Below, one piece after another: positions 765-5,938 of a DNA stretch of 5,938 nucleotides (its first letter is position 1; the number at the start of each line of letters is the position of its first letter). Under the pieces are notes generated by a model. The model was not told where the DNA came from. It saw only the letters and a list, made by a program, of their open reading frames with translations, and did not search any database. A program made the translations under genes and the position numbers. Origin of the DNA: a virus (taxonomy: Duplodnaviria; Heunggongvirae; Uroviricota; Caudoviricetes); the IMG/VR virus record IMGVR_UViG_2695420596_000010. One strand, 5' to 3'.

Positions 765-1310
765 TCATATTGCCCCCAGCATGGTGGTGACCATCGCCAT
801 CAGTGGACCAGCCAAATCCGGGTCCACACGAAACATCGACACAATGCCTTCACTCATCTCCTTCAGTTTCTGGTGGCGTGGTGCGTTGAGAATGACAGCC
901 TGTTTTGCCTCACTGAGTTCCTTTTCCATTTCAGCCAGCCGAGCCATGTAGCTATCCTGCTCAACCAGGTGGCCGCGATATTCCAGCGGTAGTACCGCCA
1001 GAATTGCCGGGGTCAGTTCACGCACGTTATTTCGGTATTTTTCAGAATCGAATTTGTTATCGAGGAAGCGGAACAGCTTCTGGCGTGCACGGCTGACATC
1101 ATCAGGGAAATCGATGGTGCCGCCGCCCTGCTCCCGATACTCATTCACAATGAGTGCGGCAACAACATCCTGATTATCTGCAGCCGACCAGGCGCGAACG
1201 GCATCACGGATTTTTTCGTGGCCTGGCGCCTGTTTTGTTTGAGAACGATTTATCACCGCAGTCGGGCTAAATCCGCTAGTCTGTTGGTATGTAAGTGGTT
1301 GCATAGTCAT
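765..1310 (-). CDS. YdaT-like / CII-type phage regulatory protein (transcriptional regulator in the cII position)
   Basis: 181-aa ORF with ATG start and AAGG a few nt upstream, lying downstream of the cro-like gene on the same strand. Motifs EYREQGGG and PAILAVLPLEYRGHL resemble what I recall of YdaT-family proteins of Rac-type prophages. Family assignment is from memory only. Confidence 0.55.
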   Translation of the reverse strand: MTMQPLTYQQTSGFSPTAVINRSQTKQAPGHEKIRDAVRAWSAADNQDVVAALIVNEYREQGGGTIDFPDDVSRARQKLFRFLDNKFDSEKYRNNVRELTPAILAVLPLEYRGHLVEQDSYMARLAEMEKELSEAKQAVILNAPRHQKLKEMSEGIVSMFRVDPDLAGPLMAMVTTMLGAI

Positions 1311-1334: not shown

Positions 1335-1568
1335 TTAGGCGGCAGAATTACTCGCGTTAAACAATGGTGCGAGGTCGGGACGAATATCTGCTGGTTTAAT
1401 CTTTCCACCAGTGGCTGAGACAATTTTCATTACATAGCGGGCATCAATTCCGCCACCGTGTAGCCAACGCCAAACTGTGGGTTGGGCTACACCGCATAGA
1501 TCTGCCAGTCGTTTTTGACTACCTGTAATACTGATTGCGAGTTGAATGGTTTGATTTGTCATTATCAA
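1335..1568 (-). CDS. Cro/YdaS-like HTH DNA-binding protein (lytic-side repressor)
   Basis: 77-aa ORF divergent from the CI-like gene. Sequence GSQKRLADLCGVAQPTVWRWLHGG is a typical Cro/YdaS-type HTH. The track start at 1568 is a TTG codon; the in-frame ATG at 1560-1562 (MTNQ...) is the more likely start. Confidence 0.7.
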   Translation of the reverse strand: MIMTNQTIQLAISITGSQKRLADLCGVAQPTVWRWLHGGGIDARYVMKIVSATGGKIKPADIRPDLAPLFNASNSAA

Positions 1569-1672: not shown

Positions 1673-2365
1673 ATGAAAAAAGAAACTCTTGCTGATCGCT
1701 TAAACCTAGCGATGGAACAATCTGGAATGTCTCAAGGCGCTCTTGCAAAGGCGTCTGGCGTAGCTCAACCCACAATCTGGAGACTGACAAGCGGCAACGC
1801 TCGCGGCTCAACAAAAATTGTTGAAATAGCTAATGCATTGGGTGTTCGAACAGAATGGCTCTCATCAGGCATAGGCCCGATGAGAAATGACGGTCAACAA
1901 TCAGGGAAGCCTGCTGTCAGCCATTCAAAATACTTCAAAATTGACGTTCTTGATATAGAAGTCAGTGCCGGGCCGGGAGTCATCAACCGTGAGTTTGTAG
2001 AAGTTCTACGCTCGGTTGAGTACTCGTTTGACGATGCTCGTCACATGTTCGATGGTAGGAAGGCAGAAAATATCCGCATCATTAACGTACGCGGTGACAG
2101 CATGTCAGGAACGATCGAACCAGGTGATCTTCTGTTCGTTGATATCACGGTTAAATCTTTCGACGGTGATGGTATCTATGCGTTTCTGTATGACGACACA
2201 GCCCATGTAAAGCGCCTGCAAATGATGAAGGATAAGCTGCTAGTTATCTCTGATAACAAGAGCTACTCACCGTGGGACCCGATCGAGAAAGACGAGATGA
2301 ACCGGGTATTCATCTTCGGGAAAGTCATCGGAAGCATGCCGCAGACGTATAGGAAGCATGGGTAG
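1673..2365 (+). CDS. CI-like prophage repressor: N-terminal XRE-type HTH plus C-terminal S24 (LexA-like) autopeptidase domain
   Basis: The track ORF 1637..2365 begins at a TTG; the first ATG is 1673 (MKKETLADRLNLAMEQSGMSQGALAKASGVAQPTIWRL = HTH). The C-terminal half has the S24 signatures: a candidate Ala-Gly cleavage site (EVSAGPG), the serine motif RGDSMSGTIEPGDLLFVD and the lysine motif HVKRL. This implies RecA/SOS-inducible autocleavage. Confidence 0.85.
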   Translation: MKKETLADRLNLAMEQSGMSQGALAKASGVAQPTIWRLTSGNARGSTKIVEIANALGVRTEWLSSGIGPMRNDGQQSGKPAVSHSKYFKIDVLDIEVSAGPGVINREFVEVLRSVEYSFDDARHMFDGRKAENIRIINVRGDSMSGTIEPGDLLFVDITVKSFDGDGIYAFLYDDTAHVKRLQMMKDKLLVISDNKSYSPWDPIEKDEMNRVFIFGKVIGSMPQTYRKHG

Positions 2366-2476
2366 TGAAGGACGTGTCAACTCTATTTTGTAAGCTATCC
2401 AGACTCACAGTTGCAGATCGACGAGTAACTTACATACAGCACAAAAAAACAATATGCACGTGCTTTTAGACTAGAC

Positions 2477-2491
2477 TTACCATAATGGTAA
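2477..2491. promoter_or_regulatory. Palindrome TTACC-ATAAT-GGTAA at the 5' end of the toxin gene; candidate autoregulatory operator of the TAC operon
   Basis: Perfect 5-bp inverted arms separated by 5 bp, overlapping the ATG at 2485. MqsA-family antitoxins are known to bind short palindromes in their own promoters; the assignment here is inference. Confidence 0.4.
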
Positions 2492-2895
2492 CAAGTATGA
2501 TTCTTAGCAGATATGTGGGAACTCCTCCCCGTGATGGCGAGGACAGAAAGATTCAAGGTGGTCCGCTTTATTTAGATATCATTGATTTGATTGATGAATG
2601 TGACACACTGCCTTGGACTAGACGGTGTATCAGGGATGTTCAATCGCTTTCTTTAGATGCAGATGACATCAAATCTATGGTGATAAAAGCAGTCACTAAA
2701 GGGAGATTTCTAGGTTCAGAATGGTGTCAAGGCAGTAAACCAGGTGTATGGGCAGCTTGTGATGCTTATAGCTTTGAGCACTCATTTTGGTGCCAAGCTA
2801 TGCATAAAGAACTTAATAACGAGTTCTACATTAAATTTTTTGTAAACATTACTGGCAATGTAGTGCTTACAGTATCTCTTCATCTCTCTAATTGA
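2485..2895 (+). CDS. MqsR-like toxin (type II toxin-antitoxin toxin, RelE/MqsR-fold mRNA interferase family)
   Basis: 136-aa ORF directly upstream of an MqsA-like antitoxin. By eye it aligns with E. coli MqsR (PLYLDIIDLI...LSLDADD..., EFYIKFFVNITGNVVLTVS versus MqsR QVYLKITVIHDVLIVSF). Toxin-before-antitoxin order is characteristic of mqsRA. The start is uncertain: 2485 has no clear RBS and 2497 is an in-frame alternative. The region is AT-rich. Confidence 0.6.
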   Translation: MVTSMILSRYVGTPPRDGEDRKIQGGPLYLDIIDLIDECDTLPWTRRCIRDVQSLSLDADDIKSMVIKAVTKGRFLGSEWCQGSKPGVWAACDAYSFEHSFWCQAMHKELNNEFYIKFFVNITGNVVLTVSLHLSN

Positions 2896-2919
2896 GTGAT
2901 GATAAATGAGGATTTTTAT

Positions 2920-3507
2920 ATGAGAAACAACAACATATGTCCAGTTTGTGGTGTAGGTCATCTCACCGTGGAGATGGAGTATGATGATGTTACTTATAAA
3001 GGGGAAACAAAAAATCTCCCAATAAGGTTTTCTGTGTGTGATCAATGTGGTTCGGAAACTGCCACACCAGTCGATTTACGAGAAAACAAACGAATTTTCA
3101 ATGAATACAAAAAGTCTATCGATGGACTTTTAACAGGAAAAGAATTAAAAAAAATTAGAACTGAAGTATGGATGATAACCCAGCAAAAGGCATCCTCTAT
3201 ATTTGGTGGGGGGCCTAAGGCATTTTCCAAGTATGAATCTGATGATGTCATTCAATCAGAAGCAATGGATAAACTGATGCGTTTAGCAGCAGAAGTTCCT
3301 GATGCATTCAAAAGGTTACGGGAATTATCTGGCGAAATCAAAGTTGAAAGAACAGTCTCATCATCTAAATCTTTACCTATATGGAAATCTGAAGCAAAAG
3401 CACAATTTGAAAACGATGATCAGGGATTTGACAGCAAATCACCAGCCCAAACAAAAATGAATCAAACATCAATAAAGATAAAAACTGTTGCTAAGCGGGT
3501 AGCATGA
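2920..3507 (+). CDS. MqsA-like antitoxin: N-terminal zinc-ribbon, central XRE-type HTH, and a ~60-70-aa C-terminal extension (candidate chaperone-addiction segment)
   Basis: Motifs CPVCGVGHL and VCDQCGSE (zinc ribbon), then ITQQKASSIFGGGPKAFSKYESDD, closely resembling the MqsA HTH (LTQKEASEIFGGGVNAFSRYEKG). GAGGA (2908-2912) sits 7 nt upstream of ATG 2920. The track ORF begins at GTG 2896, immediately after the toxin stop (2893-2895). The C-terminal tail (from ~3300) has no counterpart in the 131-aa E. coli MqsA. Confidence 0.8.
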   Translation: MRNNNICPVCGVGHLTVEMEYDDVTYKGETKNLPIRFSVCDQCGSETATPVDLRENKRIFNEYKKSIDGLLTGKELKKIRTEVWMITQQKASSIFGGGPKAFSKYESDDVIQSEAMDKLMRLAAEVPDAFKRLRELSGEIKVERTVSSSKSLPIWKSEAKAQFENDDQGFDSKSPAQTKMNQTSIKIKTVAKRVA

Positions 3508-4007
3508 TGAATGAACTTCTTAGATCAGCAATAGACGCATTATCAATAATGCATATCAATATCAGAGAATCTAACTTTGCTTTTTCTGAAGGGTATAATA
3601 GCTTTAACTTCAACAGCATAAATAAGCAAACACAATCATTTCGTAAGATAAAAAAAATCGAAGCTATTGAATTAGTAAGTGACGATGACTCATTAAAAAA
3701 TGAGCTATATTACTCTTTTCACTACTCAGTTGGGCTTAGATTTATTGCAAAATCCGAAGAAACATCTAAAGACGAAAATGATGTTGATACAATTTTTTCT
3801 ATAGAAGCAATTTTTGAGGCGATATATCGCTCAAAGAGAGAATTATCTAAAGAAGAGTTAGAAGAATTTGCTAAGCAAAATGTAGGTTTTAATGTATGGC
3901 CTTTTTGGCGAGAGTATGTTCAAAACAGCACATCCAGAATGGGAATTACTACAATAGCTATACCATTCTTTAAATTCAATAAATCAGACATACCTTCATT
4001 AGATTAA
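3504..4007 (+). CDS. SecB-like chaperone (third component of a toxin-antitoxin-chaperone module)
   Basis: 167-aa ORF whose ATG overlaps the antitoxin stop (ATGA at 3504-3507), suggesting translational coupling. The C-terminal half aligns by eye with E. coli SecB (TIFSIEAIF versus GIFSIAGI; NVWPFWREYVQNSTSRMGITTIAIPFFKFN versus [29 protein letters not shown]). Confidence 0.7.
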   Translation: MMNELLRSAIDALSIMHINIRESNFAFSEGYNSFNFNSINKQTQSFRKIKKIEAIELVSDDDSLKNELYYSFHYSVGLRFIAKSEETSKDENDVDTIFSIEAIFEAIYRSKRELSKEELEEFAKQNVGFNVWPFWREYVQNSTSRMGITTIAIPFFKFNKSDIPSLD

Positions 4008-4021
4008 ATTCAAATATAACT

Positions 4022-4048
4022 CCCGGCTACCGTGCCGGGTTTTCTTTT
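4022..4048 (+). terminator. Rho-independent terminator of the TAC operon
   Basis: Stem CCCGGC (4022-4027), loop TACCGT, stem GCCGGG (4034-4039), followed by TTTTCTTTT (4040-4048), 15 nt after the chaperone stop codon. Confidence 0.65.
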
Positions 4049-4189
4049 GCCCTCCCCCCATCACACAAACCGTTCAAAAAACCACCACGACCTCACTTCA
4101 GTTATCGCTATGCGATGCAAGTCACAAAATTAATTCTTTTTGCTATCAAACATTTAATATCAAAACACATCAACTAATAGCAATAAGCA

Positions 4190-4218
4190 TTGATATCACC
4201 AATAGCAATAGCTATTAT
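4190..4218 (+). promoter_or_regulatory. Candidate pL-like promoter with overlapping operator dyad (OL-like)
   Basis: -35 TTGATA (4190-4195), 17-bp spacer, -10 TATTAT (4213-4218), reading towards int. The dyad AATAGC-AATA-GCTATT (4201-4216) overlaps the spacer and -10, and matches 13 of 16 positions of the OR-region site AATAGCAATGCGTATT (1596-1611). Confidence 0.5.
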
Positions 4219-4411
4219 CACCATATCGCAACAACACAACGATACGGCAACCACCTGATTCACCGTTGCGATGACCGCTTAGATCCGCAGCTTGAATTTC
4301 AGCAGGCTTCGGGGAGTGCGAGGGATGAAACGGACGCGTGAACGTCGGTGTGACCAGCTGAAATCAACTCAACATTTCATACCTTAGTCGCTTCAACGAG
4401 GCGGCTTAGTT

Positions 4412-4702
4412 ATGACAACCGGCGGCCATCCACCGCCTGAATACGCGCAGAAGTCTTTATATGTTCAGCAGCCCAGCTTACGGGCAGGAGTTTTTATGGT
4501 TCATCAACATTACGGAACGCAGACCGTTAATCGCGGTGCGGTCATGCCAGGAATGCTGGTCAAACGCAAAGATGGTACCTGGACTGCATCAGCTAATTTA
4601 CACGGACGACTTTATCTGCATCGCGGCATTGAGCGCACTTATACCCGTGACTTGCTCGTGGAAGTTTTTCTCGACGGACGCGGCAACGGTCTGAATCACT
4701 AA
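4412..4702 (+). CDS. Hypothetical protein (no recognisable family)
   Basis: 96-aa ORF with ATG and a weak GAGG ~10 nt upstream, between the pL-like promoter and int. No recognisable motif; it is not lambda-Xis-like or N-like. An alternative-frame ORF (4461..4694) overlaps it, so coding status is uncertain. Confidence 0.3.
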   Translation: MTTGGHPPPEYAQKSLYVQQPSLRAGVFMVHQHYGTQTVNRGAVMPGMLVKRKDGTWTASANLHGRLYLHRGIERTYTRDLLVEVFLDGRGNGLNH

Positions 4703-4777: not shown

Positions 4778-5938
4778 ATGAACGCTTATTACATTCAGGA
4801 TCGTCTTGAGGCTCAGAGCTGGGCGCGTCACTACCAGCAGATCGCCCGTGAAGAGAAAGAGGCAGAACTGGCAGACGACATGGAAAAAGGCCTGCCCCAG
4901 CACCTGTTTGAATCGCTATGTATCGATCATTTGCAACGCCACGGGGCCAGCAAAAAAGCCATTAAAGAGTTTGGATTAGGCAGAGACAGGCGAATCGCAA
5001 TCACTGAAGCTATACAGGCCAACATTGAGTTATTTTCAGGACACAAACACAAGCCTCTGACAGCGAGAATCAACAGTGATAATTCCGTTACGTTACATTC
5101 ATGGCTTGATCGCTACGAAAAAATCCTGGCCAGCAGAGGAATCAAACAGAAGACACTCATAAATTACATGAGCAAAATTAAAGCAATAAGGAGGGGTCTG
5201 CCTGATGCTCCACTTGAAGACATCACCACAAAAGAAATTGCGGCAATGCTCAATGGATACATAAACGAGGGCAAGGCGGCGTCAGCCAAGTTAATCAGAT
5301 CAACACTGAGCGATGCATTCCGAGAGGCAATAGCTGAAGGCCATATAACAACAAACCCTGTCGCTGCCACTCGCGCAGCAAAATCAGAGGTAAGGAGATC
5401 AAGACTTACGGCTGACGAATACCTGAAAATTTATCAAGCAGCAGAATCATCACCATGTTGGCTCAGACTTGCAATGGAACTGGCTGTTGTTACCGGGCAA
5501 CGAGTTGGTGATTTATGCGAAATGAAGTGGTCTGATATCGTAGATGGATATCTTTATGTCGAGCAAAGCAAAACAGGCGTAAAAATTGCCATCCCAACAG
5601 CATTGCATGTTGATGCTCTCGGAATATCAATGAAGGAAACACTTGATAAATGCAAAGAGATTCTTGGCGGAGAAACCATAATTGCATCTACTCGTCGCGA
5701 ACCGCTTTCATCCGGCACAGTATCAAGGTATTTTATGCGCGCACGAAAAGCATCAGGTCTTTCCTTCGAAGGGGATCCGCCTACCTTTCACGAGTTGCGC
5801 AGTTTGTCTGCAAGACTCTATGAGAAGCAGATAAGCGATAAGTTTGCTCAACATCTTCTCGGGCATAAGTCGGACACCATGGCATCACAGTATCGTGATG
5901 ACAGAGGCAGGGAGTGGGACAAAATTGAAATCAAATAA
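4778..5938 (+). CDS. int: Tyrosine site-specific integrase, lambda Int family; catalytic region near-identical to lambda Int, N-terminal ~66 aa unrelated (chimeric)
   Basis: From [38 protein letters not shown]... to the C-terminal ...[49 protein letters not shown] the protein matches my recollection of lambda Int almost residue for residue, including the catalytic motifs (R in GQRVGDL, HELR, LLGH, tyrosine in SQYRDD). The first ~66 aa ([21 protein letters not shown]...) do not match the lambda Int arm-binding domain. AGGAG lies 7 nt upstream of the ATG. Confidence 0.9.

Follow-up and report, generated by a model that had tools for sequence, protein, structure and literature searches.

An AT-rich toxin–antitoxin–chaperone operon as a probable accessory cassette in the cI–tImm (rexAB) slot of an Escherichia coli lambdoid prophage

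The interval between cI and N of lambdoid phages is presented in a passage of PMC8585504, which cites Degnan et al. 2007, as a hotspot of mosaic diversity, and in lambda it holds rexAB. In a lambdoid prophage of Escherichia coli NT1F31, HigBAC (Mets et al.) is a toxin–antitoxin–chaperone (TAC) operon at a variable locus for defence downstream of cI, and in the Salmonella prophage BTP1 the gene for BstA (Owen et al. 2021, PMC8585504) is a defence gene directly behind the repressor, with a presumably shared promoter. In this study, we analysed a stretch of 5,938 nt from a member of the Caudoviricetes (IMG/VR record IMGVR_UViG_2695420596_000010; hereafter the window, to which all coordinates refer unless a locus number such as L001 is given), in which three AT-rich genes follow cI. 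We consider it very probable that this AT-rich stretch is a self-contained accessory TAC cassette of the MqsRAC type that occupies the lambdoid slot between cI and the terminator tImm, i.e. the rexAB slot. That the locus downstream of cI varies and carries defence genes is known from published work, and the window is an ordinary example of a documented pattern; added here are the base-exact limits of the cassette, the assignment of the terminator to the phage backbone, an AT bias common to all cargoes of the slot, and a conserved palindrome.

The rexA–rexB genes of lambda have the same position and orientation as the three genes of the window, reaching from the 3' side of cI to a homologous terminator upstream of oL/pL. 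They are also accessory genes of the lysogenic transcription unit and are poorer in G+C (40.9%) than their surroundings (46.0%). The proteins are, however, unrelated, RexAB being a membrane-depolarising abortive system and not a ribonuclease-based TAC, and the drop of 5 points in G+C content differs about twofold from the drop of 12 points in the window. HigBAC is also a TAC operon, whereas its toxin and antitoxin belong to the HigB and HigA families and those of the window to MqsR and MqsA. With HigBAC and CmdTAC, the competitor for the chaperone is a structural protein of the phage (bioRxiv 10.1101/2024.02.24.581848), and this published titration mechanism of HigBAC is the model adopted, by analogy, for the putative action of the window cassette. 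MqsRAC of E. coli C496_10 has, by its published description, the same MqsR–MqsA–SecB-like architecture and the same families; the toxin of the window is too divergent for the Pfam MqsR model. The C496_10 system protects against phage T2, an extra supply of the chaperone abolishes the protection, and neutralisation of the toxin needs both antitoxin and chaperone (Vassallo et al. 2022, PMC9519451). The dependence of TAC antitoxins on a SecB-like chaperone is conferred by their C-terminal extension (PMC5105189). BstA, in contrast, is one unrelated protein that comes with a DNA-based self-immunity element, not a toxin–antitoxin system, and its gene has its own Rho-independent terminator. Morons and the hotspots of P2 and P4 (PMC9122126, PMC9519451) are comparable in that unrelated accessory or defence cassettes interchange between conserved genes at fixed sites, although the P2/P4 hotspots belong to other phage families and have other flanking genes. 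Base composition is not discussed in these two hotspot papers.

The slot and its surroundings in the window consist of the following features.
1673-2365, plus strand: cI-type repressor gene with HTH and S24 peptidase domains (Pfam Peptidase_S24, 1.5e-18; HTH_3), the left anchor of the slot
2366-4021, plus strand: cargo cassette, with a leader and the toxin, antitoxin and chaperone genes (35.4% G+C)
2485-2895, plus strand: toxin gene (136 aa)
2920-3507, plus strand: antitoxin gene (195 aa)
3504-4007, plus strand: chaperone gene (167 aa)
4022-4049, plus strand: intrinsic terminator, found by a terminator scan
4129-4225, plus strand: oL/pL-like region, part of the backbone
4496-4702, plus strand: gene for a kil-type cell-division inhibitor (phrog_294 Kil, 4.8e-36; NCBIfam FtsZ inhibitor, 6.7e-16), the nearest backbone gene on the right side of the slot

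The toxin is a divergent MqsR-like ribonuclease of the RelE superfamily with an N-terminal extension of ca. 35 residues, and has the MqsR/RelE ribonuclease fold. The Pfam MqsR model misses it, and a profile of 39 toxin homologues retrieved nothing relevant from the sequences in the PDB. The protein encoded downstream of the toxin is, judging from its profile matches, clearly an antitoxin of the MqsA family with a zinc ribbon and an HTH domain: Pfam MqsA_antitoxin matched residues 15-142 of the 203-aa frame (2.1e-17), and TIGR03830 matched above its cutoff (6.9e-33). RefSeq places the start of this gene at 8774 of L001, which corresponds to position 2920. Beyond the MqsA domain match, ca. 60 residues remain, where a chaperone-addiction (ChAD) extension would stand. 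The start of the chaperone gene overlaps the stop of the antitoxin gene by 4 nt (ATGA). A profile built from six chaperone homologues matched the SecB-like Rv1957 of Mycobacterium tuberculosis (5MTW; E 1.2e-4), and the protein itself matched phrog_16879 (1.5e-23) and, weakly, the PADLOC model PD-T4-9_C (CmdC; 7e-4). The match to Pfam SecB (0.008) was below the cutoff, RefSeq names the protein SecB, and a single-sequence AlphaFold model was unusable (pLDDT 34). An MqsR-like toxin together with an MqsA antitoxin carrying a C-terminal extension and a SecB-like chaperone makes the operon a TAC of the MqsRAC type. The original prediction had likewise called the cargo a TAC operon.

That prediction had also estimated by eye that the three genes are roughly one-third G+C and the genes on either side about half. 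When the values were computed, 2400-4010 was found to contain 35.5% G+C, as compared with 47.0% outside it (two-proportion z = -8.0), so that the estimate was a fair one (35% vs 47%); for the cassette as delimited here (2366-4021), the values were 35.4% and 47.2% (z = -8.2). The G+C fraction in 300-nt sliding windows was 0.30-0.39 over ca. 2600-4100 and 0.44-0.54 in the flanks. The toxin, antitoxin and chaperone genes have 39.4%, 36.6% and 30.6% G+C, respectively. Among the backbone genes, the values are 46.6% (cI), 46.2% (cro-like), 52.4% (ydaT-like) and 49.5% (partial replication gene), and those of two backbone open reading frames (ORFs) are 51.5% (kil-containing) and 45.9% (gam::int). Codon usage gave the same picture. 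The G+C content at synonymous third positions (GC3s) was 0.24 for the TAC genes, compared with 0.49 for 16 backbone genes and 0.55 for three adjacent host genes, and each TAC gene was below every backbone gene (backbone minimum 0.315). Synonymous codon usage differed between TAC and backbone genes (chi2 = 166, df = 41, p = 7e-17), with ATA, AGA and TTA two to three times commoner in the TAC genes and CTG, CGC and GGC depleted. The TAC genes were also lower in G+C at the first and second codon positions, and their amino acids were shifted to those encoded by AT-rich codons (FYMINK; p = 5e-6). Both checks proposed with the original prediction, sliding G+C content and codon usage, accordingly confirmed the trough.

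The match between trough and cassette, which had been described as coincident, was found to be inexact. The cI stop codon at 2365 and the position of the terminator were correctly given, whereas the change points obtained from composition alone lie at 2567 and 4226, each ca. 200 nt to the right of a cassette end. The first 80 nt of the toxin gene have 49% G+C, and the backbone region from the terminator to oL/pL (4022-4226) has 39.5%. Phage genomes are patchy, and as this region and the intergenic region 1569-1672 (31.7% G+C) are AT-rich too, we considered whether the dip reflects ordinary local heterogeneity or a constraint at the protein level instead of foreign origin. This is barely credible. 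The shift is greatest at synonymous sites (GC3s 0.24 vs 0.49), and the likelihood-ratio statistic for an island was 73, a value above those of all 200 rounds in which blocks of 100 bp were shuffled (mean 21, maximum 51). The region is, besides, demonstrably replaceable, as described below. For 35 TAC or toxin–antitoxin (TA) loci whose flanks were long enough, 30 of which are distant and from other proteobacteria, the G+C content of the cassette tracks that of its host (slope 0.78, r 0.70; mean difference -3.5 points) and rises to 64%. Since homologous operons reach 55-64% G+C in GC-rich hosts, the proteins do not force AT-rich coding. Chance was, thus, ruled out as the source of the dip by the island statistic, and a protein-driven origin by the distant homologues that follow the composition of their hosts.

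Regions of low G+C content also occur elsewhere in related prophages, the minima being 34.5% in the ybcK region of L001 and 35.1% in a gene of the SIR2 family in L006. Both ybcK, of a recombinase family (L001 2425-3951), and the SIR2-family gene (L006 1-1745) follow ren and the replication genes O and P, a position which suggests a second cargo region.

The limits of the cassette were defined by comparison with 13 fetched relatives that have the same flanks and different slot content, the junctions being inspected base by base. On the left, homology to the window ends at 2349-2366. All 13 variants keep the C-terminus of cI and diverge from the wobble base of the last codon or from the stop codon (2363-2365 in the window), and two seemingly earlier breaks are synonymous changes within the last five cI codons. 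On the right, homology restarts at 4009-4022 in 12 of the 13 relatives and at 4259 in L005, in which the slot holds one hypothetical gene (126 aa). The junction is the first base of the stem CCCGGC...GCCGGG in nine of the 13 variants and lies 5' of the stem by 5 nt in L004 and by 14 nt in L003; the stem has one mismatch in L011 and is missing in L005. Eleven of the 13 have a terminator that could be read at the right junction. In the window, it consists of a stem at 4022-4039 (CCCGGCTACCGTGCCGGG) and a T tract to ca. 4049. Lambda has CCCGGCCTCAGCGCCGGGTTTTCTTTGCC (tImm) directly after the rexB stop codon, and this is homologous to CCCGGCTACCGTGCCGGGTTTTCTTTTGCC of the window. Its presence in the variants and its homology to lambda tImm place the terminator in the backbone, and on the same grounds its assignment to the cargo was rejected. 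The cargo, which had been taken to run to the terminator, therefore comprises 2366-4021, and the terminator (4022-4049) is not part of it.

The slot in the window directly follows the 3' end of an S24-type cI gene, shares its strand and is closed by the tImm-type terminator before oL/pL. Closure by a homologue of tImm identifies the position as the rexAB slot of lambda. The oL/pL-like region contains AATAGCAAT-type repeats around TTGATA-17-TATTAT (4190-4218), which matches a promoter well, and repeats of this type are also found between cro and cI (1575-1630). The kil gene was present in all variants examined. At least parts of the segment from cI to kil were detected in 2,239 of 5,426 complete E. 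coli genomes.

At least 11 other cargoes were found in the slot between flanks 97-99% identical to those of the window. Five consist of two genes: an ImmA/IrrE peptidase with DUF4411, a Ser/Thr kinase with a PP2C phosphatase, a HipA-like kinase with DUF3037, an N-acetyltransferase with an ASCH protein, and DUF6932 with a partner. The others carry DUF6414, DUF7946, a lipoprotein of the BamE/SEN1984 type, or one of three kinds of hypothetical genes. All cargoes have 33.5-39.4% G+C, as against 46-53% in their flanks. PADLOC assigned four of the two-gene cargoes to defence or candidate families (PD-T4-6/Stk2-type kinase, PDC-M11A/B, PDC-M63A/B and PDC-M66A/B); its match for ImmA/IrrE was weak, and it gave none for six further proteins from five other cargoes. 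In a sample of 60 evenly spaced records, the ASCH-type cargo was present in 10 and the HipA-type cargo in nine, other cargoes, each less frequent, accounted for 20, and 15 had no cargo gene; five matched cI only and one gave a trivial short match.

The commonest cargo-less state, represented by L007 (E. coli ST131 and many others), is a slot of 119 bp (L007 1954-2072). These are the first ca. 45 and the last ca. 70 nt of the acetyltransferase–ASCH cassette, and a match to both cassette ends marks the 119 bp as a deletion scar and not a virgin site. The comparison with related prophages that the original prediction had called for, thus, bore it out: nearly identical flanks hold other gene sets, or the scar, at the same position. 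The TAC genes are missing from otherwise near-identical phages and are unlike their neighbours in composition, two of the features expected of a moron. Atypical base composition is reportedly a classical attribute in the moron definition of Hendrix and Juhala. A review (PMC7380047) argues likewise for gogB. In two of the variants, L002 (two hypothetical genes) and L012 (DUF7946), a similar leader, ATAATCAG...GTG.TGATGAG..., occupies the first ca. 45 nt after the cI stop codon. This common leader suggests a nested replacement that left the 5' remnant of an older cassette.

The cassettes appear to be swapped by recombination in the conserved flanks, i.e. the 3' half of cI on the left and the terminator–pL–kil region on the right. 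The sharpness of the junctions, placed on the left at the last cI codon or stop codon and on the right at the first base of the stem in nine of 13 variants, might instead point to a dedicated, site-directed exchange of an integron-like or hairpin-targeted kind. We regard this as very unlikely in comparison with ordinary homologous or illegitimate recombination combined with selection. The cassettes have no recombinase gene and no conserved junction repeat, and no repeats or motifs hinting at site-specific insertion were found at the junctions. The offset right junctions of L003 and L004, the leader remnants of L002 and L012 and the scar of L007 form a pattern of nested replacement and deletion. 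Long, highly similar flanks suit homologous recombination, and selection for an intact cI and terminator would by itself sharpen the junctions.

Of the 5,426 complete E. coli genomes, 18 contain the cassette, each as a single copy, at this slot and at least 99.8% identical. A viable lambdoid phage, PhiR70_1, carries a copy 99.9% identical, and the cassette was not found on plasmids. More distant copies are also phage-borne. Klebsiella phage 2b LV-2017 has one behind its repressor (74% DNA identity), the S24 repressors of other lambdoid prophages are directly followed by toxin homologues of 70, 53 and 35% identity, and one of 57% identity lies among the tail genes of an Erwinia prophage. All six phage-borne copies, including that of PhiR70_1, are 8-16 points lower in G+C than their surroundings.

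These data also bear on whether the low G+C content is the fingerprint of a donor, that is, of a recent direct import from a low-GC bacterial genome or plasmid which has not yet ameliorated. A GC3s of 0.24 is distant from carrier and host alike, the identity of at least 99.8% across all 18 E. coli carriers fits a recent spread, relatives occur in hosts of lower G+C content such as Pseudoalteromonas (cassette 39% G+C), and part of the antitoxin gene (80 nt) matches a Vibrio plasmid at 80%. Even so, such an import appears improbable, if less so than the other alternatives considered here. No near-identical copy was seen outside the lambdoid phages and prophages of Enterobacterales. The phage-borne relatives, with toxin identities of 35-70%, mostly occupy the same slot and still fall 8-16 points below their flanks; as diverged copies remain AT-shifted, a long residence in phages without amelioration is indicated. 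Moreover, every unrelated cargo of the slot is equally AT-rich and would call for a low-GC donor of its own.

No donor of low G+C content came to light; the closest relatives are borne by phages or prophages of Enterobacterales with ca. 50% G+C and are themselves AT-shifted. The AT shift is a property of the enterobacterial phage-borne clade and of the cargoes of the slot in general, and a long-lived AT-rich pool fits these observations better than a single recent import. The low G+C content of the window cassette would, on the preferred reading of an accessory cassette, be the usual composition of circulating accessory and defence cassettes and not a demonstrated fingerprint of one low-GC donor. 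The original prediction had proposed a horizontally acquired moron inserted into the lysogeny operon. The part that stands is that of an exchangeable cargo in the transcription unit of cI; a low-GC donor genome was not found, and the acquisition is best read, from the comparison of sequences, as a putative draw from a pool of AT-rich accessory cassettes circulating among lambdoid phages.

As to expression, a promoter-like site, TTGACC-17-TAAATT, is located at 1637-1665 and ends ca. 7 nt 5' of the cI ATG (1673); a leaderless cI mRNA would result from this arrangement. The cI mRNA made from PRM of lambda is leaderless. The coding sequence of cI in RefSeq (L001 7527-8219) corresponds to 1673-2365, and the TTG at 1637 as a start of cI (242-aa ORF) is probably an artefact of ORF calling. 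The terminator scan found no terminator between cI and the toxin gene, so that read-through from the repressor promoter is plausible, as in cI–rexA–rexB of lambda.

A perfect palindrome, TTACCAT-A-ATGGTAA (2477-2491), encloses the ATG of the toxin gene (2485). It occurs once in the window, and none was expected from 200 shuffles. Of 39 related loci of gamma- and beta-proteobacteria, 27 have the exact pattern TTACCAT-N-ATGGTAA at the toxin start and seven more have near-variants. The hosts of the MqsR-like operons bearing it range from 35 to 65% G+C, and TTGAC(T) is usually found just 5' of it. MqsA binds palindromes in its own promoter. By analogy, the palindrome at the toxin start may be the operator of the MqsA-like antitoxin, and its arrangement suggests that either the message is leaderless or the operator is placed between the -35 and -10 elements. 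A tentative idea, which we think possible and no better than that, is that the palindrome is an operator of the family and that AT-richness across the slot, which extends to phage-borne TAC relatives with toxins of no more than 35% identity, is not left over from donors but maintained, through selection for silencing of the H-NS type or throttling by rare codons of toxic defence genes that sit on a strongly transcribed repressor operon.

Based on these observations and on published TAC work, the following mechanism is proposed. Lysogens would transcribe the cassette together with cI, beginning at the maintenance promoter and ending at the shared terminator, and the palindrome may add autoregulation by the antitoxin. 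The chaperone would keep the antitoxin stable. An infecting phage would divert the chaperone, the antitoxin would be lost and the toxin would abort the infection, by which the lysogen population would be protected.

Several points weigh against a self-contained cassette that moves between phages. A truly empty slot was sought and none was seen, the shortest version being the scar of L007. The cassette lacks its own terminator, and the match to a promoter just 5' of the palindrome (TAGACT/TTGACT) is weak (9/12). The immunity regions of PhiR70_1 and of the prophage of strain 442/2 are 99.6-99.96% identical to that of the window, and those in 17 other complete genomes are 98.6-100% identical; the TAC-bearing elements of E. 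coli examined are one lineage. Transfer of the cassette between E. coli backbones is, for this reason, deduced from the diversity of the slot and was not directly seen. An identical cro–cI–TAC–kil region was observed next to two different integration modules, lambda Int at ybhC in the lineage of the window (L001) and IntD at argU, a tRNA-Arg site, in the DLP12-like prophage of strain 442/2 (L056), which illustrates the mosaic exchange of whole modules.

The value of the present results lies in annotation more than in discovery, an MqsRAC-type TAC having been placed precisely in the rexAB slot of an E. coli lambdoid prophage. The understanding of phage genome mosaicism or of TAC systems is not changed by it. 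Low G+C content in combination with the two anchors, the cI stop codon and the tImm-type terminator, provides a reliable means of harvesting the contents of the slot, and many of the proteins encoded there are unnamed and are good candidates for new anti-phage functions.

The remaining features of the window are as follows.
Left part of the window: O-like replication gene, truncated
765-1310, minus strand: ydaT-like gene
1335-1568, minus strand: cro/ydaS-like gene
4778-5938: in-frame gam::int fusion

The gene on the right had been described as an integrase gene, and this could not be upheld: it is a gam::int fusion pseudogene, in which residues 1-64 of Gam are joined to lambda Int from ca. residue 38 (arm-binding domain). 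Both halves are annotated as pseudogenes in RefSeq. Since bet, exo, xis and the genes between them are deleted, the window prophage should be incompetent for excision. A second, independent gam::int junction was observed in strain EC01 (L005).

At the opposite end, 1-146 is non-prophage sequence and matches the end of an IS3-family element known from thousands of E. coli sites, inserted here in the O-like replication gene. This junction was seen in none of the 18 TAC-bearing complete genomes, in all of which the match begins at 147. Direct repeats of the TACCTGATTCGGGTAAA type, four to five in number, occur inside the O-like gene at ca. 215-335, a placement resembling that of the ori iterons inside lambda O. 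No N-like gene was found between the pL-like promoter and kil (4226-4495), and Rfam showed no known RNA family in the window, including this 270-nt pL–kil leader. In L018 and L020, relatives of the TAC-bearing phages, an N-peptide gene is present in the pL–kil leader.

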